Part shown: one piece after another, positions 7,977 to 61,927 of the stretch | Position numbering within the stretch: position 1 is the stretch's first letter | Layout of the letters: each line of letters begins with the position of its first letter | Source: a virus | Lineage: Duplodnaviria; Caudoviricetes | Reading direction: 5' to 3' (one strand) | DNA: 64,000 bases | IMG/VR virus record: IMGVR_UViG_2924263452_000001 | Coordinates: 32,001 to 96,000 of that record | Made by a program: the position numbers and the translations under genes | The notes under the pieces: model-generated | What the model was told of the DNA's origin: nothing | The model's input: only the letters and a program-made list of their open reading frames with translations | The model's database searches: none

Positions 7977-8143
7977 GTTTTCTCCTGACGATTATTTTCG
8001 GCTGTCTTTGCCCCCCCCATCATCGTTGAAAGAGTAGGTGCTAATCCTTCTATAGAATAAATTCTTTTGATTATGTCAAGACCTTTTATATCTAATCGTC
8101 CTAATACCTTTATTTTTGGTTGTTGATTAATTGATTTCTTCAT
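7973..8143 (-). CDS. C5-MTase target-recognition mini-module, frameshifted at G8 (8011-8018)
   Basis: RIYSIEGLAPTLSTMMGG then QRQPKII when one G is removed. Confidence 0.6.
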   Translation of the reverse strand: MKKSINQQPKIKVLGRLDIKGLDIIKRIYSIEGLAPTLSTMMGGAKTAENNRQEKT

Positions 8144-8537
8144 ACAATCTATCCAATCCTTTTTCAAACGCTCCGATACCAGAGAAAAAGCTACTTACCT
8201 TTAAATCTTTGAAAAGATACGGCATTGCCTGATAAAGATTTTTATAAATGTGATACAGAACTCCCACACAAATAGAATTTCCTGCCTGCTTGTAGAGCTG
8301 TGTGTCTGACATTCCAGCTTCTTTGGCTTTATCAAAATCTTCATCTGAAAAATCCATCAATCTCCAACATTCTCTTGGTGTCAAACGGCGAATACCATAA
8401 TCTTCAATATTTACATCATTTTCCACAATCACTCTTTTATCTCCTCCTGCATTAATCGTCCGGATAGTGCCAAAAAGCCCCCCTTGAACGTTCTCATTCC
8501 TTCATCGCATCTTCGTTCACAAATATATCTGTTCATA
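8127..8537 (-). CDS. C5 cytosine MTase subunit: TRD + motifs IX, X + motif I (permuted), frameshifted at G6 (8478-8483)
   Basis: IRRLTPRECWRLMDF, LYKQAGNS, then FFSGIGAFE at the C-terminus; ATG at 8537 joins in frame with one extra G. Confidence 0.7.
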
Positions 8538-8671
8538 CTATTCCCTTCTGGTTGGTTTCTGTATAATCACCGCATTCATACTCTGTTTGCCAAATCCTTT
8601 ATAATCTCTTGCCATAAGTGTATTTGCACAATTGGTTATATGATTTACATGGTTTGCATAATCACTTACAA

Positions 8672-9488
8672 TTACTCCTTGACGATATTTTTCGTCTGTA
8701 TCAGATCCCACATGTGGCGATCTAATGAACAGCCCCCCCATGTCTGATTGTATGAGAATAGGATCTATACAGTTTTCCACTGTCAATCATTTCCTGTAAT
8801 GCCTTTTTCTCTTTGGCTGAATCAACGTAATATTTATCTGGCACGTTTTCTTCATTCTCAAGAATATCGTACATTGTTATGTCACTTTCAAACCCATCTG
8901 GAAGGTTGAAATTGCCGTTATCAAGTTCTTTTCTGATGATTACAAGATATAATCGTTCTCTGTTCTGTGGAATACCAAAATCTTTGGCATTCAGAACTTT
9001 CCAGTAAGTGTTATATCCATATTCGTGAAGCTCTTCGATAAACATATCGAATGTGTTTCTGAAAGATTTTCCTACAATATTTTTTACATTCTCATAAATT
9101 CCCCAGGCTGGCTTATTTGCTCGAACAACACGCAGCCATTCAACCAACAGAGAAGAACGTGTCTTATCAAGGTTTTCGCTCCCACAATTAGGACACTTAT
9201 CTCTTTTTGACCAATGAACTGTCAAAGGGTTATATGTAAATGGCTCTCCGTCATCACCTGTACAATCTTTACAAGTCCATCCACTACCAGCTTTCTTTCC
9301 AGCAATACTGAAATCTTGGCATGGCGATCCCCCACAAATCATATTGAATGGTAACATGCTGTTTTCATCAACTTTCGTAATATCTCCAATGTTAAGGTTT
9401 GGATCAACTCCATGAATAGCACAATATGAAGTTGCGGCAAACTTATCAACTTCGCAAAAATTTACCAGTTTCCAACTTTGAATTAATT
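8672..9488 (-). CDS. C5 cytosine MTase catalytic subunit (motifs II-VIII); start codon on an invertible segment; G7 switch at 8733-8739
   Basis: FCEVDKFA, GDITKV, GGSPCQDFS, YENVKN, PQNRERLY; no in-frame start upstream of WKLVNF in the current orientation. Confidence 0.8.
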
Positions 9489-9652
9489 TTTCATTGTAAA
9501 ACTATTGTAGAAAAGTGCTGATTTAGTGGCATTTATACTATATTTTGTATGCTATATGTATATGTTGACACTAAATATAGCGTTTATTGCCACTAAAAAT
9601 CAGGTAAAAGAGGTATAAAAATTGGAAAATAACGATAAAAAATTAATTTAAT
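9477..9652. mobile_element. Invertible segment A (OFF orientation) carrying RBS+TTG of the C5 MTase
   Basis: Sites TTTGAA-TTAATT-TTTCAT (9477-9494) and ATAAAA-AATTAA-TTTAAT (9635-9652); plus-strand AAGAGGT and TTG at 9622 become in frame after inversion. Confidence 0.75.
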
Positions 9653-9819
9653 CTATTTTTGCCACATTTCATTAATAACCATTGCAGCAGATATTCCAAG
9701 TAAAGCCCAAAACTTCGGGGTATTAGGCTTTGCGTCTGCTACTGTTGTAAGTGCCGCAAATAACACACCATATATCAGGCTTCCAATAATTGTTGTTTTC
9801 ATTTATTTATTTCATCTTT

Positions 9820-10062
9820 CTACAGCATTTCCGGATGTTCGTTGAACATCTGTAAGAATTTCTTTTCGTCATTTTTATTAGAACACCAAAGTTCCAACTC
9901 ATCGCCGTGTTCGCCCACAAGTGCTGCAATCGCTACATATTGTGTTAAAGTAGATTTGAGATTATACTTATCTCCATATACAGAAGTCAGTGTTACTTCA
10001 CCTTCGCACTCATTTACTACTTTTAAAAATGTTTCAACGTCTTTTACGTTTTTGATTTTCAT
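9820..10062 (-). CDS. Small HPr-like fold protein
   Basis: FLKVVNECEGEVTL...NLKSTL resembles small HPr-like Clostridial proteins. Confidence 0.5.
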   Translation of the reverse strand: MKIKNVKDVETFLKVVNECEGEVTLTSVYGDKYNLKSTLTQYVAIAALVGEHGDELELWCSNKNDEKKFLQMFNEHPEML

Positions 10063-10250
10063 TTACTTTTCCTTTCTTCTCTTTCAATTTCTGTCAATCT
10101 CTCTTGTGTTCCGCCAAATTCGTAACACTTACATGGTTCATTATCAACAGATACATCTTTTCCGTATTTCTTTCCGAAACATCTTCCAAGCCATTCTTTT
10201 CTACATAGTTGGCAGTTATGCTTATTTTGTTCTGGCGTAATATGCATCAT
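10059..10250 (-). CDS. Hypothetical Cys-containing protein
   Basis: AGGAGG RBS, overlapping junctions. Confidence 0.5.
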   Translation of the reverse strand: MMHITPEQNKHNCQLCRKEWLGRCFGKKYGKDVSVDNEPCKCYEFGGTQERLTEIEREERKSK

Positions 10251-10990
10251 TATCCTCCTATTAATTGGCTCTCATTTTCCTTCAATACAAGCTGACAAGC
10301 AATTCCGCAATCTTCCATGACTTCTAAATCCATACGCCCACGTTTAGGATCAAGTTTATCTAGGAACACTCCCTTAATGCAGCTATGCCCTATTTCCCTT
10401 TCCTGTCTTGCCCTACGTTCGAACACCTCTGGGAAATCTACTCTAATCTTATTCCAATATCCCATACCGCCTTTTACGCATCCAATACAGTTATTATTTG
10501 GATATCCAAGATCATACATAACTGGACGTTTTAATCCCAGTTCTTTTGCAAGTGCATGACAATCTTCTTTTGTGAATCCATTTTCGATTAACGGAAATTC
10601 ATGGTCGTAGTCTGTCATAGTATTTACCAATCTGTCAGCTCTACGCTTTTCATTTAAGTCATATCCCCATACATAAGTATGGTGGTCAAAGTTTTGTGCT
10701 TCCCATTTCTTTCTTACTTCTTTCTTCAAAAATTTTGTACAAGGTGCGCCATACGGAGTATTGATGCAACGTGTTTTTTCAATAACATCATCTACTGACG
10801 CATATCTTTCAGACTGTAATATGGTTATTTTTCTTCCTAATAATTTCTCGCAATCATGCAGAAAGCGTAAACTATCTGGATGCTGATTCGGAACGTGAGT
10901 ATAAATAAGCTCATCAATATCCTTTGATAAATAACATGCTACAAAACTTGAAATTCCTGTACTAAACCAACAAACTTTCACACCAGCCAC
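10250..10990 (-). CDS. PP-loop / PAPS-reductase-like protein, probably DNA modification
   Basis: CWFSTGISS PP-loop variant, APCTKFLK, GYPNNNCIGCVKGG. Confidence 0.7.
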   Translation of the reverse strand: MAGVKVCWFSTGISSFVACYLSKDIDELIYTHVPNQHPDSLRFLHDCEKLLGRKITILQSERYASVDDVIEKTRCINTPYGAPCTKFLKKEVRKKWEAQNFDHHTYVWGYDLNEKRRADRLVNTMTDYDHEFPLIENGFTKEDCHALAKELGLKRPVMYDLGYPNNNCIGCVKGGMGYWNKIRVDFPEVFERRARQEREIGHSCIKGVFLDKLDPKRGRMDLEVMEDCGIACQLVLKENESQLIGG

Positions 10991-11225
10991 TAACCGAATC
11001 CGGTGAATGGCAATTTTGTGGATTGCTATGTTTCGTACAAGCCTTACGTTTAGGTTTTACTTTACTTGTACTTTAGTTCAAACAAATTATGAACTGTTAG
11101 CCACGATCAGAAATTTTCCGGGCGTATATCTCTTTTCTCCAACACCCAACCTAGTTTCACTAGGATAAGGTGTTACTCCCTTCTTTTTTATTGTTATTTA
11201 TTTTATTCATCTTTTATTAAACCTT

Positions 11226-11950
11226 TCATCCCCACTGATCCGCCATTGCTTTGGCGATTCCTGGGAATGTTTTACTTCTTGCTTTTGCTCTCCCGGCTTG
11301 ACCACCAGTTGTATTTTTGATTCCCTCACACCAACCAATCCTTTTGCCTTTGCATTTTTTACCTTGGCAAATATATTGTGGCTCTGGAACTGGCAAATTA
11401 TTTTTTCTGTCAAGCACTGGAAGATTTTTAAGCCATAAACATGTTCTCTTCTGGAAATAATTCTCCGCATCATTCTTGTTACTAGCAAAATAATACGGAT
11501 GAACAATTTGATTTGGCTTTCTCCAATGTGTATTCATATACCCCACTGGATTTTCAATTGCAATTTTCTCACAATCTGCATTTGCTATTTTTAAGAAAAA
11601 TTGTTCTGCCTCATTTCTTTTTTCTATTCTAGCGGCTACTTTTTCTGGTGGATTACACTTTAATGAGTAATGCCGTGTTCCTGCAGATGTAAGATATGTA
11701 CATGGTGGAAATGCAATTATTATATCCCATTTCCCGTCTATCTTATGTTTGATTCCATCTGTTGTCTCGAACTCACAATTTCCGTTCAACAAAGGAATAA
11801 CATCTCCCATAACGTGCCATTCTGGATGATTACCAGAACATTCAATTATGTCACAGCTATATGCTTCATGTCCTTTATTTCTAAACTCAATACATACTCT
11901 TTGTGATTCTTCACACGCCACTAATATTTTTAATCTATGTTGAAAACAAC
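11226..11950 (-). CDS. Phage DNA cytosine methyltransferase-like protein; start codon on an invertible segment
   Basis: LVACEESQ, AFPPCTYL, IENPVG, RSKTFPGIAKAMADQWG; in-frame stop upstream and no RBS-linked start. Confidence 0.75.
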
Positions 11951-47978: not shown

Positions 47979-50603
47979 CTACTTTCTTCTAGTGATTGCT
48001 TTTCTCACAAGATCAATCGGAATAATTAAGAATGCCAGGGCTACCGTTACACCCCACTGTGTAAGTGTCATTGCTGTACATCCCATAATTTCCCCACCAA
48101 ACTGTGCAAGTAAAAATGTAATGACAAAAATCGCAATTGCTATCTCTACAAAAAGTTTGTTCTTGCCGATTCCTTTAAACAGGTTAAATCCATCTGTTCT
48201 GATATTGAAACCGTTGAATGTTGCCATCATCACAAGTAATGCAAATCTCGCTGTTGCATAAACTTCTTCGTTATTTCCAAATATATTCTGTATAGCTGGC
48301 AATAATGTGAGTCCAAAAATTCCTATAAATGCCATAACTGATACCGCAATCTGACTAACAGTTTCTTTTGATAACAGTTTTGATCCTTTTGGAATAGGCT
48401 TTTCTTTCATATACTCTTCTTTTGCTGGTTCTCCACCAAAGGAAAGAGAATTAAGAGAATCCATAACGATGTTAATTACAAGAATCTGCACTGCTGCAAC
48501 TGCTTCTACAGCCATAATAATCGGATATAAAATACTGAGAATTACCAGACCTACATTGATAGGTAACTGGAATTTCAGGAACTTCATAACATTGTGCATG
48601 AATGTTCTTCCAAGAAGAACTGCATCCGTAATTGACACAAAATTATCATCTGTAATAATAATGTCCCCGGCTTCTTTGCATACATCTGTTCCAGATCCCA
48701 TTGAAAAGCCAACGTCCGCAGCTTTTAAAGCTGGTGCATCGTTTGTGCCATCACCAGTCATACCAACACAAAGTCCAAGTTCCTGTGCCAGTCGCACAAT
48801 TCTCAGCTTTGTATTCGGTGTAGCTCTTGCGATAACCTTGATATGTGGCAATTTTTCTTTTGCTTCTTCGTCGGATAATGCATCAAAATCAATAGCTGAC
48901 ATCGCAATATCTGTGTCATCTTTGATAAGCCCGGCATCTTTCGAAATAGCTTTTGCTGTGTCAATGACATCGCCAGTTACCATCATAACCTGAACACCTG
49001 CATCATGCATTCTTTCAACTGCTTCTGGTACTTCTGGACGTACATCATCACGAATAGCAACCAATGAAGTAATGATAAGATCATCAGGTAAACCATTTTC
49101 CGGCAATGCTGATCTACTATAGCCTGTTGCAATTACTCGCATTGCTTTTACCGTGTATGATTTTACAATATCTTTTAATTTATTTCTTTCAACTGTATGT
49201 GTGCCATTTTCATCTTCATATGAAACGGCTACATCAATCAAACGCTCTGGTGCGCCTTTATAGTATGTGATTTTTCCGTCTTTTCCATCAGTTTCAACTG
49301 CACTGAATTTATTTGCACTGTTAAAGCTCTTTGCATTCGTTACCTTTACAGAATCAGTGATTGTTTTATATTCATCACTATCAATCATAGTAAGTAATGC
49401 TCTTTCTGTTGCATTTCCACCTACAATGTTTTTATTCTCGTCATACATAGCACTGCTATTTAACGCTACATTCAACTTGAATAAGCTATCCACCATTGTT
49501 CCACTTGTAACTTTTTCTCTATTACACATTACATTTTCAACTGGAACAAGTTTTCCGACTGTAAGTGTTCCTGTCTTATCAGTACAAAGCAACTGAATAT
49601 TTCCCGCTTCCGGAATTTTATTCGTATGTTTTGCCAGGACATTGTGCTTAATCATAATCTTCGCATTCTGTGCTGTTATAAGATTAATGATAAGTGGTAA
49701 ACCTTCCGGCACTGCTGCAACAATAATGGTAAGTGCGGTTACTGCAATAGTAAGAATATTCTTCAGAACTCCAATCCAACCAATTCCAAAATATTCTGCA
49801 ACGCCACCATATTGAATGATGTTTGTGATGATTAACGCTACTACAATAATTGAAGCTCCAATATACCCGAATTTGCTAATCTGTTTAGCAAGATCCTCTA
49901 ACTGGATTTCCAACGATGTTTTTGTTTCTTCAATTTCATCAATAGTTGAGATTGTTTGACCGTTTACCGTATTAACTCCAACATTGGTTACAATCATTTT
50001 TCCCTCACCGTCAACCACTGTTGTTCCGGAGAATAATGCATAATAATTTACATAATCATCTGAATTTGCTTTTCTTTTTCCACCGATTTCGATATGTGGA
50101 TTTCCTTTATTCCAGGCACTTTTTTTACATGGCTCAGATTCTCCATTTAAAACAGAATTATCTACTTTTAAATTTCCTTCAACAAGATATCCGTCTGCAT
50201 AAATAGCCTCACCTGATTGAACAATAACCAAATCTCCAACAACAAGATCATCCGTGTTAATATGTTCTATCTTTCCATCCCTAACCACATTGCAATAATG
50301 AACCGATGTCCTATCCCTTAATTCTTTCTCACTTTTCTGGCTTTTTAATCCTATATTCATTCCAAGAAGCGCAATAGCAAGTAATACTACTGCAACGCCA
50401 ATCGGTTCTGAATAAGAACCCTGTCCAAACACTGCAATAACTGTGAACACAATCATCATGGCTAAAAGAATCTGGTTTATGTGATCCTTAAATGTTTCCA
50501 TGAAGAACTGCAGTCCAGTTTTCATTTTTTTCTCTGGTAACTTGTTTGTCCCAAATTTTTCTCGGTTTTCAACCACCTGTCTACTTGTTAGTCCTTTTTC
50601 CAT
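47979..50603 (-). CDS. P-type II (Ca2+-type) cation-transporting ATPase
   Basis: NGES, PEGLP, DKTGTLT, KGAPE, GDGTNDAPAL. Confidence 0.92.
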   Translation of the reverse strand: MEKGLTSRQVVENREKFGTNKLPEKKMKTGLQFFMETFKDHINQILLAMMIVFTVIAVFGQGSYSEPIGVAVVLLAIALLGMNIGLKSQKSEKELRDRTSVHYCNVVRDGKIEHINTDDLVVGDLVIVQSGEAIYADGYLVEGNLKVDNSVLNGESEPCKKSAWNKGNPHIEIGGKRKANSDDYVNYYALFSGTTVVDGEGKMIVTNVGVNTVNGQTISTIDEIEETKTSLEIQLEDLAKQISKFGYIGASIIVVALIITNIIQYGGVAEYFGIGWIGVLKNILTIAVTALTIIVAAVPEGLPLIINLITAQNAKIMIKHNVLAKHTNKIPEAGNIQLLCTDKTGTLTVGKLVPVENVMCNREKVTSGTMVDSLFKLNVALNSSAMYDENKNIVGGNATERALLTMIDSDEYKTITDSVKVTNAKSFNSANKFSAVETDGKDGKITYYKGAPERLIDVAVSYEDENGTHTVERNKLKDIVKSYTVKAMRVIATGYSRSALPENGLPDDLIITSLVAIRDDVRPEVPEAVERMHDAGVQVMMVTGDVIDTAKAISKDAGLIKDDTDIAMSAIDFDALSDEEAKEKLPHIKVIARATPNTKLRIVRLAQELGLCVGMTGDGTNDAPALKAADVGFSMGSGTDVCKEAGDIIITDDNFVSITDAVLLGRTFMHNVMKFLKFQLPINVGLVILSILYPIIMAVEAVAAVQILVINIVMDSLNSLSFGGEPAKEEYMKEKPIPKGSKLLSKETVSQIAVSVMAFIGIFGLTLLPAIQNIFGNNEEVYATARFALLVMMATFNGFNIRTDGFNLFKGIGKNKLFVEIAIAIFVITFLLAQFGGEIMGCTAMTLTQWGVTVALAFLIIPIDLVRKAITRRK

Positions 50604-52475: not shown

Positions 52476-52922
52476 TTACGCCAACCTCCTCTCTAAGATT
52501 TGATTTACCAATTTTCCATCTGCTTTACCCTTAACCTGTGGCATGAGAACTTTCATGATCTTTCCTTTTTCTTTTTTGGTTGGACTATCTAATTCCAGAT
52601 CCTTCAGTACATCAGAAATAACCTTTTCAATTTCTGCTTCATTCATCATCTGCGGCGCGAATTGCTGCAGAACTGCCAGGCGGTTATTACACTGTTGAAT
52701 AATGTCCGTTCTGTCTGCCGGTGTCATTTCCAGTGTTTCTTTTGTCTGTTTGATCTCTTTCTGTACTACTGCATCCTCTTCTTCTGGTGATAAAACTCGC
52801 ATTTTATCAATTTCTGCATTCTTCAAAGCCGCCAAGAGTAGAGCCAATGTATCTTTCTTCTCCTTATCTTTTTCTTTCATGGATTTAACCATTTCGTTTC
52901 TTACTAATTCCTGTTTACTCAT
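52476..52922 (-). CDS. yqeY: GatB/YqeY domain protein
   Basis: MKEKDK...LKNAEID...GKIMK..KGKADGKLV. Confidence 0.85.
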   Translation of the reverse strand: MSKQELVRNEMVKSMKEKDKEKKDTLALLLAALKNAEIDKMRVLSPEEEDAVVQKEIKQTKETLEMTPADRTDIIQQCNNRLAVLQQFAPQMMNEAEIEKVISDVLKDLELDSPTKKEKGKIMKVLMPQVKGKADGKLVNQILERRLA

Positions 52923-52952: not shown

Positions 52953-55655
52953 TTATGCCATTTGTAATTTAGGTATTCTATCAACATCTCTGTTTGAAAA
53001 CACTTCTATAAAATTCCCTTTTATATTAATACAACGTTCCCCAAGCTTTCCAATATGTTCAATATCACTAAGCTTACGAAACCTATTTTTCCCAATCCTT
53101 ACTGTATATTTATAATAAATTTTGCTTAAATTAGCACAGGTCATATTCTCTTGTTTTAAAATATCCTGATATATCTCATTTGGAACTACTGCCACATTTA
53201 TTTTTTTATATTCAATATTTCGTACACATTTATTTTCTTTTAACAATTCTCCACTTTCACAATAACTATATATATGAACTTCATCATTGAGTGGATTTAT
53301 TGTACCTATGCTCGCCTTATACCCATCAATGTCATTTTGAGCTATTAAATTGACACTGATATTATCCCACACATTATTCATATAATCTGCATTTTTGTAT
53401 GGTATTTTTAACTGACCATTATTTCTATCAAGTAGATTATATGTGTTTTCCAATAAGCTTTCGTCATATATTTTATAAGAAAATGATTCCGGAACTGTAA
53501 CATACAAATAAACATCTTCATTATTAGAATGCTCTCTTATAGTTCCCAAGTCGTCGTGTCTACGTAATCTTCCGATAAACTGTATTAAACTTCCAATCGG
53601 ACACAAACTGGAAATCCCATAGTCAAAATCAATATCAAGCGACTGCTCTATTATAGAAGTTGCAATCACTATACATCTTTTTCCTCTATGCTCTCTATTC
53701 TTTCCGAATTTCTTCAAAAGTTGCTGCGAAATACTGTCCTTTTGTTCTTGTGTCATTTCACTATGAAATTTTATAATTTCTGCATCTGGTATTTTATCAA
53801 TCAACAAATCATATAATTCATCAACCTCTCTTATTAAATTCCTTTTTATACATATACACGAACCATTGCCAATTAAACTTTTGGCTAATTCAACGATTTT
53901 ATCATAATCATTGTCAATATGCCTCTGTTCATATAATGTAATTCTCTTATTTCCTTCTTCAAATACTTTTTCCTGAATAAGTTTTCCTTCTCTGTCTATG
54001 ATTGAAATTAACGGATATGCAGTTGATATTTCGTTGTACTCACCATATACTCCCAGTAGTTCTTTCTTCATTCTTACTGGTAATGTTGCAGATAACATAA
54101 CAACTCTAATCCCAAATATCTTGCACATCTCTAAAAATCTTTTTATTACTTCTAACTGAAAATAATCTATGTCGTGAATTTCATCTATAATAACCGTTTT
54201 GTTTAGCAATCCCATAAATTCCAAACCATAATACGGAATCTTTCTCACAGACATTAAAATTTGATCTATTGTTCCCACTACATAAGGGTACATCAATTTA
54301 AGTCTTTCATCTGAAAGAATATACGATCTATCTAACACGTTATCCTCGTTGAAGTACGAAGTTCCAGTATATAATAATGCTTTTTCATTTATATTGCACT
54401 CTTTAAGAATGTCCCTAACTCTCCCCAACAATCCTTGCGCTGTACAAGTTGTTGGAGTGGCAAAATAAACACCGCCAGGGGATCTTGATAGTGCAGCATA
54501 TATAGCCGCCTCTGTTTTTCCTCCACCACAAGCATCCTCAATAAGAATCAGCGAATAATCGTTTCTATCACAATATCCGCAAATAACATTCTGAATATTA
54601 TTGGGACACTTAAATTTCCCAAAAATATTATGATATAATGAGTCTTTTTGTTCATAAGACATTGAAAAGTTGCTTATATACTGTTCCTTACATCTCTCAG
54701 ATATATTATCATATAAATATTTCATATATTCAGAATCTTCTTTAAAATCAAGACTCGTTTTTAATCCAATCGTCATTTGCCCTGAAGCCAACCAATCAGC
54801 AAAAACAACTATACTTGTTATTATTAAAGAAACTAGATCAATAATCTCATTTCCGTCTACATCACTGTATAATTTCATATTTGTATTTTCTCCATTATGA
54901 TACGGAAATAGTTTACAAATATATTTATACATACTTTTAATATCGTCCGGGATTTCGCAACAACTCAAAAAATCTCGCGTTTCTGATCTTCCCACTTTAT
55001 TTTGATGGTGGCACGAAATAATCTTTTTGGCAATCCCTATATTATATCTATCTAAAATCCCATCCTTTTTTAAGAGCTGCTCCAAAATGATTTCAGAGTA
55101 TACTTCATGCCGGAATTTTTTACAATCTCTTTCTGTTGGATTTTTCCAAAATTCATCGTGCATTTTTCCTATATCATGAATCGCCGCTAAAAAGATGACA
55201 AATCTTTTTACATCGTTTGTATCTGACTCCGTTAATTCAGATATTCTTTTAATAGTATTCCTGAATATTGTATTACACAAATATTTTGCTATTACACCAG
55301 ATTCTATTAAATGAATGTGTAAATATTTATCTGGTTTTGCATAATAGTTCATCCAGTTCGTTATTTCTTTTTCGTAATTTTTTGTAATCAAATTTATTCC
55401 TTCAAAATCATTAAGTTTATATCTTGTTTCTCTAATTGTCTTTATAGAGAATTTTTGCTCTGCTTTATCACTGTAAATAAGTGTGGCAGAAATTTCTATA
55501 TTTTCTTTAGATTCGTTTTCTAGCATATTCCATATGTATTCTCTTGTATTCGCAGGACAAGTTGACAAAAATACATATGGCTTTATTTCATAACAAAATC
55601 TAGTTAATTCACCTCTGATTTTATCTGGAATATTTTCACATATAATCAAAAACAT
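52953..55655 (-). CDS. cas3: Cas2 (type I-E)-Cas3 fusion: Cas2 + HD nuclease + SF2 helicase
   Basis: aa 1-90 ENIPDKIRGELTRF..EIKPYVF...REYIW...DFEGINLI match I-E Cas2; HDIGK, RHE, CHH, ADWLAS; GGGKTEAA, DEIH, LSAT, EQSLDIDFD, GRLRRH. Confidence 0.88.
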   Translation of the reverse strand: MFLIICENIPDKIRGELTRFCYEIKPYVFLSTCPANTREYIWNMLENESKENIEISATLIYSDKAEQKFSIKTIRETRYKLNDFEGINLITKNYEKEITNWMNYYAKPDKYLHIHLIESGVIAKYLCNTIFRNTIKRISELTESDTNDVKRFVIFLAAIHDIGKMHDEFWKNPTERDCKKFRHEVYSEIILEQLLKKDGILDRYNIGIAKKIISCHHQNKVGRSETRDFLSCCEIPDDIKSMYKYICKLFPYHNGENTNMKLYSDVDGNEIIDLVSLIITSIVVFADWLASGQMTIGLKTSLDFKEDSEYMKYLYDNISERCKEQYISNFSMSYEQKDSLYHNIFGKFKCPNNIQNVICGYCDRNDYSLILIEDACGGGKTEAAIYAALSRSPGGVYFATPTTCTAQGLLGRVRDILKECNINEKALLYTGTSYFNEDNVLDRSYILSDERLKLMYPYVVGTIDQILMSVRKIPYYGLEFMGLLNKTVIIDEIHDIDYFQLEVIKRFLEMCKIFGIRVVMLSATLPVRMKKELLGVYGEYNEISTAYPLISIIDREGKLIQEKVFEEGNKRITLYEQRHIDNDYDKIVELAKSLIGNGSCICIKRNLIREVDELYDLLIDKIPDAEIIKFHSEMTQEQKDSISQQLLKKFGKNREHRGKRCIVIATSIIEQSLDIDFDYGISSLCPIGSLIQFIGRLRRHDDLGTIREHSNNEDVYLYVTVPESFSYKIYDESLLENTYNLLDRNNGQLKIPYKNADYMNNVWDNISVNLIAQNDIDGYKASIGTINPLNDEVHIYSYCESGELLKENKCVRNIEYKKINVAVVPNEIYQDILKQENMTCANLSKIYYKYTVRIGKNRFRKLSDIEHIGKLGERCINIKGNFIEVFSNRDVDRIPKLQMA

Positions 55656-55678: not shown

Positions 55679-56937
55679 TATAATACCTTCTCTATATAAG
55701 AAGAAATACAGACGGGTTTTCCACTACCATTTGCATTTTTAGAACCACCTTCTCATGCAGAGAAGAAACCTTACAAAAGGATATGCTCAGTGTTACAATA
55801 CAGGAATTACCTTCTCATATAGAGAAGAAGCATCGAACATATGTATCTATGTGACAAACACGAAGAATTACCTTCTCGTATAGAGAAGAAACTTCTGTTT
55901 ATCTGTATTTATGCTCGAACATTTAGAATAACCTTCTCATGTAGAGAAGAAACATCGGTGCTGCCAATCAAGAGCAATCAACCGCTCAGAATAACCTTCT
56001 CATATAGAGAAGAAATTGAAATCCCCATTTCGAGGCAACAAATAGATTTAGAGTTACCTTCTCATATAGAGAAGAAATAAAGAAGCTATAAAAAAGCCAA
56101 GCGAGGACACAGAGTTACCTTCTCATATAGAGAAGAAATTTTTGATATGGATTCCGGCAGCAGTCGCGCCATAGAGTTACCTTCTCATATAGAGAAGAAG
56201 CCCTGACAAGTCCTTATGATACGATACACTATGAGAATTACCTTCTCATACAGAGAAGAAATGTCTGCACAACTGCATCGTGATCTGACTCTTTAGAATT
56301 ACCTTCTCATATAGAGAAGAAATTAAAAGCTTACTTTCCCACTTCTTTCTGCGGTGAGAACTACCTTCTCATATAGAGAAGAAACAGAGGGATAATTGGA
56401 GGATCAGATTCTTTTTCGGAATTACCTTCTCATATAGAGAAGAAACACAAAAACTTGCGGGCTATCTCTTGATGCGTGGGGAATGACCTTCTCATGTAGA
56501 GAAGAAACTGTGCCACGCACCGGAAGCTCTCCATATTCAAGAATCACCTTCTCATATAGAGAAGAAACAGCGGCTAGCACTGTAAGAAATGGCTTGTCTT
56601 TAGAACTACCTTCTCATATAGAGAAGAAACCGGCAATATTCACCTTTATGGCACACCTGCAAGAGAATAACCTTCTCATGTAAAGAAGAAACGTACTCAG
56701 ATTTTCTTGAAAGTTCTCTCCTGGAGAATAACCTTCTCATGTAGAGAAGAAACTTGATCCATTTGAGATCTTTTCCCTCGCAATTAGAATAACCTTCTCA
56801 TATAGAGAAGAAACTGATAAGAATTTTTATGTCTATTGATTGCCTCAGAATAACCTTCTCATGTAGAGAAGAAACATGTTCCGCGGTTGCAAATGCTGAT
56901 CTGATCTGAGAATAACCTTCTCATGTAGAGAAGAAAC
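55679..56937 (-). CRISPR. Type I-E CRISPR array, 21 repeats (one degenerate) and 20 spacers of 31-34 nt
   Basis: 29-nt repeat GTTTCTTCTCTACATGAGAAGGTTATTCT (minus strand): CTTCTC/GAGAAG stem and 8-nt handle; period 60-63 nt. Confidence 0.97.
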
Positions 56938-56945
56938 TCCATAGT

Positions 56946-57545
56946 TTATAAGATTACAAACGGTAACATAAGCCCACTTCCATATGATTTTTGCTGCCCG
57001 ATTCCATTTTTGCAAGCTTCAATGAATTTGTCACGATCATCTATTCTTACACGTAAAATGAATGTCGATATTCCTAATTCTCTGCTCTTCACACCGTCCT
57101 TTGCAATATAGCACGATGTTTGGATTTCTTTATAAATTTTTTTCACCGTTGCACCGGATTCCAACATCTTTCTTATAACCCAATTTTCTTTTTCATATGA
57201 ATCAGTAATGAGCATTTTTCTACTACTATTTTTTTCTTTTGACTTTATAACGTCAGTTTTTACTGGGTTCACATGAATCTCAATATCAATTTCGTCATCT
57301 TCTATACATTCATCATAATTGATTTCTTCAGAATGAACCACAGAAAATCCTGTACATGCTTCAACATTTGGTTTATTTATAGACTGTAGAAAAATCACCT
57401 GATCTTTTTCATCGTTATAAAATAACACGCCTTCTTCTTTTCTATTTGATTTAAACATCCGCATAATTGTCTTATGCATCTTATCAAAATCATGCAACTC
57501 CATTCGCATTTTTTTTATGTCATATTTTAAAATATATAAATACAT
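56946..57545 (-). CDS. cas6e: Cas6e (Cse3); start MYLY at 57545
   Basis: MYL...H..IM, LQS, NPVK, G-rich loop GIGQQKSYGSGL. Confidence 0.88.
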   Translation of the reverse strand: MYLYILKYDIKKMRMELHDFDKMHKTIMRMFKSNRKEEGVLFYNDEKDQVIFLQSINKPNVEACTGFSVVHSEEINYDECIEDDEIDIEIHVNPVKTDVIKSKEKNSSRKMLITDSYEKENWVIRKMLESGATVKKIYKEIQTSCYIAKDGVKSRELGISTFILRVRIDDRDKFIEACKNGIGQQKSYGSGLMLPFVIL

Positions 57546-57550
57546 AGCAT

Positions 57551-58090
57551 CTAACCTCTGCAATTCCTATACGAACACCTTTTTGTTATTTTGTACATCT
57601 TACTTACATCAACTCTTTCTACTCCTTTGAAAACATTCCCTGCCGGATATTCCTTTCGACCAAGGTATAAATCTCTCTTCGGATGTTCAAGACAATAACC
57701 AATTCCTTTTGTAATATAATCATCATAAAGTCTAAAATACAAAACGAATTTCTTATCTACTATGGCTTCTTTTCTTACGATAGAAAGCCCTTTAGGATCT
57801 ATTTTCCCATTTCCACACATATGCTTATCCATGTTCGATTTATGAAAATCTTCCATGATTGAACATGCTCCACTCATATCTGACTGTTCTGTATCTAAAT
57901 ATAGTTCAATATTATCTTCGATATAATCAATAAGTGGATTTTTATAAGTTAGATTTAGTGCGTTTTCAATTAATCCTCCAACTCCTGATAAGGTTGGTAT
58001 GTATGATGTTCTTTTAAATATAGGTGTACTTGCAGTACCCCACGATTGAAGTGGGGCAGCAAATACTAATTTTCCGTATAACTTTTCCAT
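57551..58090 (-). CDS. cas5e: Cas5e (CasD), compact
   Basis: APLQSWG...RT..PTLSGVGGL...LYLGRK. Confidence 0.88.
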   Translation of the reverse strand: MEKLYGKLVFAAPLQSWGTASTPIFKRTSYIPTLSGVGGLIENALNLTYKNPLIDYIEDNIELYLDTEQSDMSGACSIMEDFHKSNMDKHMCGNGKIDPKGLSIVRKEAIVDKKFVLYFRLYDDYITKGIGYCLEHPKRDLYLGRKEYPAGNVFKGVERVDVSKMYKITKRCSYRNCRG

Positions 58091-59370
58091 TAGATATTTT
58101 CCTTTACAAAATCCATAATATCTTTTTCCTTATATGTCACACTTACATTTTCATCCGTAAGTCCAAATTCTTCTTTTCTAGCAAAATATGAAGGACGTAA
58201 AAACAGCTTTTTCTTCTCTTCTTTTATCCCCTCATTGTTTTTAATAATAGCAGAATCAATAAATGTGTTTAAAGCATCAATCGAATCTTTGGCTGGAATA
58301 CGAAAATCCACATCATATGCATCTCTTCTTTGACCAAATGTAACATACATTAATATAGGTTCTGATTCTGAAAAGTATGAATTTCGTCCTCCTGTTGGAT
58401 GTGACCAATAGATAGCTTCCATGTAAATGCCGATAATTAAACGTGCTATTTCTCTCGCTTCTTCTCTTGTTTCTATTCCATTGTATCTCATTTCATTTTC
58501 GATCATCTGATTTATGTCAATACAGTATTCTTCCAGTAAAAGTGGTGAACTAATATCTATATCAAATAAGTTTGCTGCACCAGGATTCTTATACGGATCG
58601 TATTTGTTTCCAAAAACAGTTTCTCTTCTTGACTGATAACTAGAATTGTATGCCTCTTCAATTACACTAAAAGCACAAGCAACGGAAACAGAGCTATTAA
58701 TTGTTTTAATGAAGCATGTGCTCATTCTTCCAAGTAAACAAAGTAAATGTCCGCAGCTATGTAATTTCCCAATTCTTAAAATAACTTCGTTTTTAAATTT
58801 AGTCTGAAGCTCTTTATCCGAAAAATCATCTACCGTTTTGAAAAATTCAATAAATGTATCTGCAATACATTTAATCTCATTTACAGAATATTTATTACTT
58901 TCTTTTGTTGTAATTGAAATACTTTCACTGCTTGATTTTTTTGGTTTCTTGTTACATTTACTATCACTCTTATCATTTCCATCTTTAAAAATATTTTTCA
59001 AAATCAATAAAATTCTATCTTCCTCATCATCACTTAACTCTACACCAGTTTCCTTTTTGAAATAACCTCTAAGATATTCGGCTAAAATAAGTTCACCAAT
59101 TCTTCTTGTATCTCTTCCAATATCTAATCCCTTATATAGCTGCTTAATATATTCTTTCTGTCCATTCTTGATCGCCGCACTACTGCAAAACGTTCTGTCA
59201 ACTCCATTGTAAGTAATAGTTTTAATATTACCAACGCCATCGCAATTTAAACGGGCAGCTTTGTATGATCTTAATACATGTACATTGATAATATTATTTT
59301 CATTGTCATTCATTCTTCTTTCAATAATTTCTTTAATGCATTCAATTTCTGTCATTTTTCTTTCCTCCAC
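58090..59370 (-). CDS. cas7e: Cas7e (Cse4)
   Basis: HVLRSY...LNCDGVGNIKT..YNGVDR..SS..IK; LLGRM; PTGGRNS. Confidence 0.85.
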   Translation of the reverse strand: MEERKMTEIECIKEIIERRMNDNENNIINVHVLRSYKAARLNCDGVGNIKTITYNGVDRTFCSSAAIKNGQKEYIKQLYKGLDIGRDTRRIGELILAEYLRGYFKKETGVELSDDEEDRILLILKNIFKDGNDKSDSKCNKKPKKSSSESISITTKESNKYSVNEIKCIADTFIEFFKTVDDFSDKELQTKFKNEVILRIGKLHSCGHLLCLLGRMSTCFIKTINSSVSVACAFSVIEEAYNSSYQSRRETVFGNKYDPYKNPGAANLFDIDISSPLLLEEYCIDINQMIENEMRYNGIETREEAREIARLIIGIYMEAIYWSHPTGGRNSYFSESEPILMYVTFGQRRDAYDVDFRIPAKDSIDALNTFIDSAIIKNNEGIKEEKKKLFLRPSYFARKEEFGLTDENVSVTYKEKDIMDFVKENI

Positions 59371-61489
59371 TTGATAAATATTTTATTAATTTTTTCCCTG
59401 AATATTCCCAATTGCAAGCAAGCATATATAAATCATACATGTCACAACCATTTTCTTTTGATAATGATTTTATTAACCTCTGACATATCCTCTTTGCTGT
59501 ATGATTAAATTCCTTCTGTGTTACAAATGTTTCTATATTGCTTTTTGCTGATCCTGAAATTTCTGATGAATAGTAGTTTCTTTTTAATATATCACCTATT
59601 TTACTTGCCCCTGCTCCAATTGGATCTCTCATATTTAAAGCTAAAGAAACTACAAAAAGCAAATTTCCATCAAACTTCTTGATTTCAGGAAAACTTGTAT
59701 AATACGCAAGCAACTGTTCTCCACTAAGCTCATCTTCCGAATCTACATTTATTGCTTTTTTCAAATCTCTTCTTCTTTTAGAATTTTCTCTTTTAGTAAG
59801 AAGATTAAGTCCTTTATAAAACTCTTCTCTGCTTAACATATACACTCCCCGCACATTGTAAACCGTATTATCCGGAATATCATTTGCACCATATTCTTTA
59901 TATAAATATGCGAAAAATTTATTCTTTCTTCGTTCACATTCGATTCCTATAAACCTATCGCCATACTTTTTAAATATTTTTATGGCTTCGGTTGTTACCC
60001 ATTTAATCGCATTGTCTTTGTCGCCACTATTTATAATATCCATTAAGTTCTTATTTATAAAAAGTGCAGTTTCACATTGATACATGAAATTGTTTAATGC
60101 TGACTCTGCGATAACTGATCCTTTTGCTTTTCGGTTCTCTCCAAAACGTCTAATAGTGTCTATATCTTTAATTGCTTTGTAAATCTCTTTTGCAATCGCT
60201 GCTATGTCATCACAAACTAATCGCAATAGTTTTACATTTACATTTTTATTTATTTGATACTCCAAGTTAATCATTTCTCTAACCTGACTGGTGTTTATTA
60301 TATCAAACCCAACCAACTTAATAGAAAAATCGTCTGGGAGAAATTCGATATTATCTCTAGCACTATTTAATCCGCTTATACCCATACCAGAAGCGATAGA
60401 GTTTCCTGATGACGGTATAAGAGCGTACATTTTCAAAAATGGCTTGTTATCTATTCCAGATCCTTCTAAGTCAATACAATTGCAAGCTTTCAGTTGCTTC
60501 CCATTCACTTTATAAACATTTGGATCGCGAACCTTCCATATTTTTGAGATCTTTTCTCTTTGTCCCGCATTTATTGATGGTTTTTTAAAATAAATGCTTC
60601 TTATAACCCCATTTTCATAGTCAACATTTCCGTATCTTATAAAATTATACGGTGTCATATAACAATTCATAAATTTTATTTCGTGCAAGCCATTCTTATC
60701 ATTTTTGTCGCGGTCAATTTCTGAATATATTTTCAGCATATCCGAATACTGTTTTCTTCTATAAAATGGTACTCCTGAATAGTCAATATCCTTCGACGAA
60801 ATATTTAGAAGTAATGTTTCAAAAACATTATTCGCTTTTATAATGCCAATCATAACAGTATTACCTAATAATGTAGAAGCCCATCCAAGTCCATTCGCTC
60901 CAGAATAAAACATTCTGAGACACAATATATACAAATATTCTTGGAATGTCACACTTGCAAATTTTATATAACTGTTTTCCTTTGAATACACAAAGCCGTT
61001 TCGTGTGGTATCTTCCTTGTAATAATTTTCATATGCTTCTACATCCATATACCCGTAAAACATATCATTTGTTTCTTTTTTACAGGTTGGAACAATAAAA
61101 CCAATTGGTCTTTCTTTTGCTTCAATTTCTCCGGCTGCATACTGTGCGAATGCTTTTTTCTCACCAAGCAGCTCAAATGACGTTCCTTCTTTTCTGCAGT
61201 TGTCAAAATATTCTCTAATAATATCCATATCAAATCTGCCTTTTTTAAGAAGATCATATATATCACTTTTTCTTTCAGTTGATCGCGGTTTATAGATGTC
61301 ACACAAGAACAAATCTAACAATCGAATAATTCCAACTGCAGTCATATCAACTCCCAGAACTGGCAATATTTCTTTGTATTCATGAGCATTTTCAAAAAGT
61401 TCAAGAACAGATACATTTATATCATTTCCACTCTTATCTTTAACTCTGATGCATTTACTTTCTAAAATATCGTATGTTGTATTCATCAA
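59342..61489 (-). CDS. cas8e: Cas8e-Cas11 (Cse1-Cse2) fusion with an internal start at 59839
   Basis: N-terminus YDILESKCIRV..G..VSVLELFENAHEY..I...RLL is Cse1-like; the last 165 aa are helical and Cse2-like, preceded by GGGGAG-5nt-ATG. Confidence 0.75.
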   Translation of the reverse strand: MMNTTYDILESKCIRVKDKSGNDINVSVLELFENAHEYKEILPVLGVDMTAVGIIRLLDLFLCDIYKPRSTERKSDIYDLLKKGRFDMDIIREYFDNCRKEGTSFELLGEKKAFAQYAAGEIEAKERPIGFIVPTCKKETNDMFYGYMDVEAYENYYKEDTTRNGFVYSKENSYIKFASVTFQEYLYILCLRMFYSGANGLGWASTLLGNTVMIGIIKANNVFETLLLNISSKDIDYSGVPFYRRKQYSDMLKIYSEIDRDKNDKNGLHEIKFMNCYMTPYNFIRYGNVDYENGVIRSIYFKKPSINAGQREKISKIWKVRDPNVYKVNGKQLKACNCIDLEGSGIDNKPFLKMYALIPSSGNSIASGMGISGLNSARDNIEFLPDDFSIKLVGFDIINTSQVREMINLEYQINKNVNVKLLRLVCDDIAAIAKEIYKAIKDIDTIRRFGENRKAKGSVIAESALNNFMYQCETALFINKNLMDIINSGDKDNAIKWVTTEAIKIFKKYGDRFIGIECERRKNKFFAYLYKEYGANDIPDNTVYNVRGVYMLSREEFYKGLNLLTKRENSKRRRDLKKAINVDSEDELSGEQLLAYYTSFPEIKKFDGNLLFVVSLALNMRDPIGAGASKIGDILKRNYYSSEISGSAKSNIETFVTQKEFNHTAKRICQRLIKSLSKENGCDMYDLYMLACNWEYSGKKLIKYLSSGGKKNDRN

Positions 61490-61507: not shown

Positions 61508-61927
61508 TTATATTTTCCCTATAGTTAAAATTCCTTCGTCTAACAACTGATTTATATATTGCAAAAGTGTTTCCTGAGTTTCCAAATCTTTTTCTGTTTC
61601 AATTTCTTGATAATCGAAAAACTTTTTAAAATTGTTTTTACCCATACCGCCCCAACAAGTACAATAACAATGAACTTCGTGGCGATAATACGGCTTATCA
61701 TAAATTCCAATCCATACAGAATTGTCAGTACAATACTTTCTATCTGCATCTGTTCCAATGCTTTTTGAAATACACCAGGCATTTATCACATCATTTCGCC
61801 AGAACAACGGCTCTTTGATTTTAGAGCAATCATTTACAATCAGTTTATTTATGTCTGAAGGTTTCAAGTTATATTTATTCTCGACTTTTGGTTTTCTCAT
61901 ATTGCAGCCTCCTAGAATGATAACCAC
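61508..61927 (-). CDS. Hypothetical protein (start probably MRKPKV)
   Basis: AGGAGG RBS before the internal ATG. Confidence 0.55.
   Translation of the reverse strand: MVIILGGCNMRKPKVENKYNLKPSDINKLIVNDCSKIKEPLFWRNDVINAWCISKSIGTDADRKYCTDNSVWIGIYDKPYYRHEVHCYCTCWGGMGKNNFKKFFDYQEIETEKDLETQETLLQYINQLLDEGILTIGKI

Follow-up and report, generated by a model that had tools for sequence, protein, structure and literature searches.

A cas8e-cas11 fusion gene with a candidate internal Cas11 start in a phage-borne type I-E CRISPR-Cas locus

Where is the Cas11 (Cse2) subunit encoded in a type I-E CRISPR-Cas operon that has no cse2 gene? The question is raised by a locus of IMGVR_UViG_2924263452_000001, an IMG/VR virus record (Caudoviricetes) of 127,362 bases with an estimated completeness of 75%. 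Bases 32001-96000 of the record were studied (64,000 nucleotides (nt); hereafter the window), and all positions below are those of the window. Type I-E serves as the reference for Cascade, and a separate cse2 is treated as a hallmark of this subtype, while nested translation of Cas11 is seen as a feature of I-B, I-C, and I-D. In the phage locus, cas8e is the first gene of a cas8e-cas7e-cas5e-cas6e operon adjoining a CRISPR array. The analysis described here suggests that this gene encodes a Cas8e-Cas11 fusion protein and contains an inner start, by which both fused and free Cas11 would be produced. The probability of this whole statement is estimated at roughly 0.55.

The lack of a separate cse2 had been claimed in an earlier note made from the sequence of the window, and it was confirmed. 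The start codon of cas7e (58090..59355, minus strand; 421 amino acids (aa) from ATG 59355) lies 14 nt before the stop codon of cas8e, and GGAGG is found 8 nt upstream of the ATG. Because the start of cas7e overlaps the end of cas8e, a cse2 gene cannot be accommodated between them. The Cse2 family PF09485 has no match across the 127-kb record even at an e-value of 10, and a hidden Markov model (HMM) of Cse2 matches only the C-terminus of the cas8e product.

The open reading frame (ORF) of cas8e extends from 61489 to 59342 on the minus strand and encodes 715 aa from TTG 61489, the length given in the earlier note. ATG 61486, the codon after the TTG, is the likelier start, because the relatives begin with MNTTYD and are 714 aa long. 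PF09481 (Cse1) matches aa 10-231 with an e-value of 3e-8 (33.6 bits against a cut-off of 24.7), and the Cas8e model of PADLOC matches the protein with an e-value of 2e-10. With HMMER, 218 relatives were found among 1.84 billion representatives, and nearly all of them are Cas8e proteins of ~480-580 aa that match the N-terminal half. Residues 3-496 of a canonical Cas8e, P0008 (520 aa), are colinear with residues 6-508 of the query (BLASTP e-value 5e-24), and a 551-aa Cas8e relative aligns in the same way. Since the alignment with P0008 is end-to-end, Cas8e is complete up to about residue 530, its C-terminal helical region included, and ~180 residues are extra. The closest diverged relative, P0003 (574 aa, 33% identity), does not have the extra C-terminal tail.

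In the fusion protein, the N-terminal globular domain of Cas8e corresponds to aa 1 to ~399 (60293..61489, minus strand, as are all parts of the gene) and aligns with both P0008 and P0003. It is followed by the retained C-terminal helical bundle of Cas8e at aa ~400-532 (59894..60292), delimited by the P0008 alignment and with an isoelectric point (pI) of 9.2; a low-confidence AlphaFold2 model shows four long helices at aa 400-509. The next 18 residues, aa 533-550 (59840..59893), constitute an acidic linker (pI 4.2) whose counterpart is found in neither canonical Cas8e nor Cse2. This linker is probably the former end of cas8e together with the intergenic region. The remaining 165 residues (59342..59839; 18.9 kDa, pI 9.3) are the Cas11/Cse2-like domain and the candidate free Cas11. 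They have the character of a small, basic, all-alpha protein of ~160-190 aa located directly after cas8e.

It is very improbable that this frame is an artefact in which a sequencing or assembly error removed the stop codon of cas8e and merged two adjacent genes. Homopolymer frameshifts in cas8 and cas7 of the metagenome contig L001 show that errors occur in such data. Against this explanation, the continuous frame of 710-714 aa of the fusion family is recorded on more than 150 contigs (ENA, Logan, and NCBI), and the same unbroken frame is present in P0001 and P0002 and at the junction in L001.

The contig L001 (ADJT01012479.1; 156,884 bp; 96% identical; region 8001-11411) has a T6-versus-T5 homopolymer frameshift at about codon 478 of cas8, and a second frameshift splits its cas7 into frames of 151 aa and 301 aa. 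These frameshifts are probably sequencing errors, and they could also indicate a decaying copy. Two gene calls in the databases, P0187 and P0196 (478 aa and 233 aa), result from them. A naturally split cas8 gene in L001 was considered and rejected; cas7 is frameshifted too, and the change is in a T homopolymer.

Several observations point to Cas11 as the identity of the C-terminal domain. It follows the Cas8e part and precedes cas7e, the place occupied by cse2 in all canonical operons. Among the relatives, P0088 (691 aa) is a fusion of Cse1 and Cse2 recognizable with Pfam, although a search with its C-terminus for further Cse1-Cse2 Pfam fusions returned only P0088 itself. Three other long Cas8e proteins, P0025 (746 aa), P0037 (732 aa), and P0081 (765 aa), have unannotated helical tails of ~200 aa. 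A joint alignment was made with eight Cse2 sequences (Thermus, E. coli, Acaryochloris, Bifidobacterium, Ideonella, Deinococcus, Streptomyces, and P0088). In this alignment, the tails of P0025, P0037, and P0081 and the phage domain share Cse2 motifs in the same order: an N-terminal E-x-F...L, an LRR-like motif, an RF-x-x-LL-like motif, and D-x-x-x-L...W.

The profile comparison with hhalign gave a score of 38.9 (e-value 2e-5) for the three tails alone against Cse2. When two sequences of the phage lineage were added to the tails, the score against the eight Cse2 sequences rose to 49.3, with a probability of 93% and e-values of 4e-7 (local) and 4e-8 (global). The addition of column-shuffled phage sequences instead resulted in scores of 24.7 +/- 4.6 with a maximum of 34.7 (n = 60), 4-5 standard deviations lower, and the addition of reversed phage sequences resulted in a score of 26.7. 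An HMM built from Cse2 and the three tails, leaving out the phage sequence, was compared with all 626 six-frame ORFs of the phage, and it matched only the cas8 frame (residues ~556-699, e-value 0.003); the e-value of the next-best ORF was 1. The domain is therefore the single Cse2-like frame in the genome. The protein-language-model features of ESM Atlas are in agreement: the best three clusters were all PF09485 Cse2 (score 0.88; 197 shared features), and no usable named match was obtained when the PF09485 family was skipped.

The last 165-180 residues could instead be another kind of helical add-on, related to recruitment of Cas2-3, to anti-anti-CRISPR function, or to DNA binding, whose likeness to Cse2 comes from helical composition. 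This explanation is considered improbable, and the observations that count in its favor, and so against a Cas11 domain, are mainly failures of direct detection. Neither aa 551-715 nor aa 533-715 matched anything in Pfam, PADLOC, PHROGs, or the sequences of PDB. The Cas11e profiles of PF09485, NCBIfam, and PADLOC did not match at e-values up to 10, the domain being too divergent for single-sequence-to-profile detection. The close phage-lineage sequences alone were not significant against Cse2 or against the other extensions (e-values 0.1-0.4), and significance was reached only after the three other Cas8e extensions joined the profile. A small Cse2 HMM placed the domain at about the 8th percentile of shuffles. 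The AlphaFold2 models were unusable, with a predicted local distance difference test (pLDDT) score of 36 for aa 384-715 from a single sequence and of 46 for aa 551-715 from five near-identical rows. The earlier note had proposed to predict the structure of aa 551-715 and compare it with Cse2; with the poor model of this region, Foldseek returned only noise. From the nine helices in this low-confidence model of aa 551-715, the domain is predicted to be all-helical.

The add-on explanation has difficulty with the combined profile and its shuffled controls, with the single Cse2-like frame, with the ESM Atlas result pointing to Cse2 alone, and with the coincidence of the position of cse2, the size and charge of Cse2, and the shared ordered motifs. 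When free-standing relatives of the domain were sought with a word-index search, the only matches were gene calls of the same phage lineage. The sequence comparisons make it very likely that the C-terminal 165 residues represent a divergent Cas11/Cse2 domain behind a complete Cas8e and that the fusion is real.

The second part of the question is whether this domain is also made as a free protein. As the earlier note described, codon 551 of the frame is an ATG (59839-59837; 59837..59839, minus strand) preceded by GGGGAG and TGTAT, and translation from it would give a 165-aa in-frame product; the coordinates and the sequence were confirmed. The Shine-Dalgarno (SD)-like GGGGAG (59850-59845; 59845..59850, minus strand) is encoded by Arg548 (CGG) and Gly549 (GGA), and TGTAT is the 5-nt spacer. 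When the profiles are aligned globally, residue 1 of the T. thermophilus Cse2 falls opposite Met551. The motif of the first helix is in register (MLSREEFYKGL versus VSPGERFLDWL), with EEFYKGLNLL aligned to ERFLDWLKRL. An in-frame start codon with a ribosome-binding site (RBS), the signature of a nested Cas11, is present at a Cas11-like boundary.

The energy of the interaction between the SD and the anti-SD at Met551 is -7.6 kcal/mol, and it ties for the strongest among 463 internal in-frame ATGs of 144 phage ORFs. Because of this rank, the combination of SD and ATG at codon 551 is more than chance. The median SD energy of the chosen true starts of the phage is -7.35 kcal/mol. The sequence GGGGAG occurs 8 times on the coding strand in 127 kb. 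The CGG codon in the SD is the sole CGG among the 37 Arg codons of cas8, and CGG is the rarest Arg codon (3.9%) of this genome, whose GC content is 34%.

A corresponding pattern was recognized at the protein level in other fusions. Among 70,188 residues of 150 Cas8e homologues, RGG.{2,4}M occurs twice, both times at the joint between Cas8e and the tail: RGGQFTM in P0025 and RGGYEYM in P0037. The phage protein has RGVYM at this position. P0025 and P0037 are ~25% identical to each other and to the phage protein. The origin of the RGG-type pattern is likely to be the SD of an overlapping cse2, as the canonical phage-borne I-E operon of MT835722.1 shows. There, the codons for the Cas8e tail DEGGTA-stop give GAGGGAGGA, which serves as the SD for the overlapping cse2 ATG. 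Several canonical Cas8e proteins also have K/R/E-G-G within a few residues of the stop.

The only relatives with available DNA are the metagenome contigs L001 and L002, and they are at least 94% identical. In L001, the SD and the ATG are kept despite a synonymous change from GTG to GTA between them, 2 nt downstream of the SD. The internal start is kept in relatives of 90-97% identity. No further DNA was recovered: a search of viral contigs with the fusion protein, P0003, P0025, P0037, and P0081, a search of genome contigs with A2 and P0088, and a search of phage and plasmid collections with the fusion protein all returned zero matches.

It is possible, with a probability clearly lower than that of initiation at Met551, that the gene is a fusion and nothing else. 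Cas11 would then be solely tethered, the SD and the ATG would be a decaying relic of cse2 or a chance occurrence, and there would be no functionally relevant free Cas11. Cascade would have one Cas11 domain, like the Cas5-HNH variant of I-E or, more loosely, the Cas8f bundle of I-F. Several features of the start site are unfavorable to initiation and agree better with such a protein. The spacing from GGAG to ATG is 5 nt, which is short for this genome; the phage genes have their peak at 8-10 nt, and 8 of 75 genes have 5 nt or less. The mRNA is not relaxed at Met551: the fold from -30 to +30 has a dG of -8.4 kcal/mol compared with a mean of -6.9 kcal/mol at internal positions, and the accessibility percentile is 33, while the real starts of cas8 and cas7 are among the least folded 2-5%. 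The conservation of the SD says little, because the relatives with DNA are at least 94% identical, and the support from P0025 and P0037 is at the protein level. The P0081 fusion has no obvious Met at the joint.

The functional context also contains points on this side. The operon carries an I-F-like fusion of Cas2 and Cas3. A free copy of Cas11 would not be strictly required, because I-F systems are without Cas11 and because Cas11 is partly dispensable in some I-E systems. The dispensability in I-E is described for some functions (PMC12235044; see also PMC10910872), and the I-E Cascade with Cas5-HNH has one Cas11 (10.1101/2024.07.22.604555).

A solely tethered Cas11 leaves other observations without a simple account. 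In strength, the SD equals that of the median true start and stands far out from those of internal ATGs, and it is kept via the rarest Arg codon in an AT-rich genome. The RGG-xxx-M footprint persists in lineages that are only ~25% identical, and the length of the CRISPR RNA (crRNA) implies two Cas11 positions. Some initiation is likely where an SD and an ATG lie in an AT-rich message that is translated. The outlier SD, the rare codon, the match with the domain boundary, and RGG-xxx-M in other fusion lineages make the production of a free Cas11 plausible. Initiation at Met551 at a meaningful level is regarded as somewhat more probable than its absence, on the strength of these sequence features. 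Of the proposal in the earlier note that a Cas11 is hidden in cas8e and translated from inside it, the former half is supported, with a C-terminal Cas11/Cse2 domain after a complete Cas8e and a Met at the start of Cse2, and the latter half is plausible rather than proven.

On short contigs of this lineage, gene callers independently began products exactly at Met551 (P0189 and P0152; 165 aa and 171 aa), which is weak evidence. In the variant gene call P0197 (183 aa; ENA contig of 2,995 bp), MLSREEF, the beginning of the Cas11 part, directly follows an unrelated N-terminus of 18 residues, MYRRFRNRRTVRAEFAVY. This variant may stem from a frameshift or a rearrangement; should it be real, expression of the Cas11 part separately from the Cas8e part would be possible there.

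The simplest history of the gene would be the loss of the cas8e stop codon between two overlapping genes, with the initiation region of cse2 kept. The ancestral initiation region (SD GGGGAG, 5 nt, and ATG 59839) would persist inside the fused frame, and the one gene would give an 83-kDa Cas8e-Cas11 fusion and a free Cas11 of 165 aa and 19 kDa from Met551. The repeats of the adjoining array have a period of 61-62 nt, which is the canonical length of the I-E crRNA. With a crRNA of this length, Cascade would have six Cas7 and two Cas11 positions, of which the tethered Cas11 would take the one next to the helical bundle of Cas8e and the free copy the second. This placement is inferred from the Cascade architecture of E. 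coli and T. fusca together with the precedent of I-B, I-C, and I-D. A wider extrapolation, that there is a deep, mostly phage-borne clade of I-E in which cas8e and cas11 are fused, the RBS and start of cse2 are under selection, and one tethered and one free Cas11 are used, has an even chance of being correct.

Downstream of cas7e, all genes of the system are on the minus strand. The Cas7e protein matches PF09344 (e-value 5e-19) and the Cas7e model of PADLOC (e-value 2e-21). It exceeds E. coli CasC in length by ~60 aa; PF09344 covers only aa 28-349, and the C-terminal ~70 aa are unexplained. The genes cas5e (57551..58090; PF09704 and TIGR01868) and cas6e (56946..57563; PF08798 and TIGR01907) follow, and the CRISPR array (55734..56943) contains 20 repeats. 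Beyond the array, a 900-aa protein (52953..55655) is a fusion of Cas2e and Cas3, with PF09707 at aa 1-89 and the HD and helicase domains of Cas3. No cas1 is encoded in the 127-kb record. With the array placed between cas6e and cas2-3 and without cas1, the locus is an adaptation-less phage-borne variant of I-E, in which the fusion of Cas2 and Cas3 is I-F-like.

The genes flanking the locus are small phage ORFs without family matches. One of them, a Cys- and aromatic-rich ORF of 139 aa (61508-61927, minus strand), lies 18 nt upstream of cas8, and its position is conserved in L001. It may be an accessory of the system that has been unrecognized so far. It was considered as a candidate for Cas11 and rejected, having no family match in Pfam, PADLOC, or PHROGs and no match with the Cse2 HMM. 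Directly beside the CRISPR-Cas locus, the phage also has a gene for a P-type ATPase of the PMCA Ca2+ type (47979-50603; 874 aa; 519 bits with TIGR01517) and one for a YqeY-like protein (52476-52922).

Two other loci were recognized during the comparison. The scaffold MT835722.1 (L013:12187-13059), labeled as a phage and derived from human faeces, carries a GC-rich, complete canonical I-E operon with cas3, cas8e (545 aa), cse2 (213 aa), cas7, cas5, cas6, and cas1, and at the end of the operon a 290-aa Cas2 with a C-terminal exonuclease-like extension. In the Streptomyces angustmyceticus plasmid p1 (L008:1-4174), a casA of 4,620 nt (~1,539 aa) is followed by a separate casB of 240 aa. This casA is presumably the Cas3-Cse1 fusion known from Streptomyces.

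If both forms of Cas11 are made by the phage gene, the locus would capture a stage in the emergence of nested cas11 genes. Nested translation of Cas11 would be extended to the best-studied subtype of type I, with a traceable route, the loss of a stop codon between overlapping genes, to the arrangement of I-B, I-C, and I-D. For annotators, it would be a caution that such loci should not be scored as lacking Cas11. It would also matter for reconstituting compact phage-borne Cascade-Cas2/3 systems; tools based on I-C and I-D were crippled by the omission of the inner product for as long as its existence had not been discovered. The impact on the field would be incremental, because the mechanism itself is known.

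Nested translation of Cas11 from the gene of the large subunit is established in I-B, I-C, and I-D (McBride et al. 2020, 10.1101/2020.04.18.045682; for archaeal Cas11b, PMC11899642). The phage locus resembles these systems in having no separate cas11 gene, in the in-frame RBS and ATG at the domain boundary, and in the expected combination of a tethered Cas11 domain and free Cas11 copies forming the minor filament. It differs in that the system is I-E, whose hallmark is a separate cse2, and in that the large subunit retains its full helical bundle, with Cas11 added behind it. The phage arrangement thus has the appearance of a recent fusion of two genes in which the start of the downstream one was retained, and not of an ancient nested gene.

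In reviews and structure papers, Cas11 of I-E is an independent gene (PMC10161043). The statement in the earlier note that I-E normally has a separate Cas11 gene is correct, though fusions of Cas8 and Cas11 related to I-E are mentioned in PMC10910872. With the canonical I-E systems (E. coli CasA/CasB and T. thermophilus Cse1/Cse2; L009 and L003), the phage locus shares the gene order cas8e-(cas11)-cas7-cas5-cas6e, the families of Cas7e, Cas5e, and Cas6e, the array period, and a Cas11 domain of the Cse2 type. In contrast to them, cse1 and cse2 of the phage are in one frame, and the proteins are very divergent (33 bits for Cse1 with Pfam, which does not detect Cse2). The system is phage-borne, with Cas2e and Cas3 in one protein, the array within the operon, and no cas1.

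The closest precedent for the fusion itself is a single sentence of Altae-Tran et al. 2023 (PMC10910872), which describes cas8 as 'additionally fused to cas11' in I-E-related loci with Cas5-HNH. These loci are likewise related to I-E and have the same two genes fused. They have Cas5-HNH and no Cas3, whereas the phage locus has Cas2-Cas3 and an ordinary Cas5e, and the internal start was not analyzed in that paper. The literature search found no paper describing an internal start in an I-E fusion. Like the phage protein, Cas8f of I-F1 is a large subunit with a tethered helical domain resembling Cas11, its C-terminal bundle, and both systems have a fusion of Cas2 and Cas3. I-F has neither a conserved internal start nor a free Cas11 (McBride 2020), while the domain added in the phage is an entire Cse2 equipped with a start signal of its own. 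The phage arrangement varies a mechanism that is already known and does not constitute a new kind of system.

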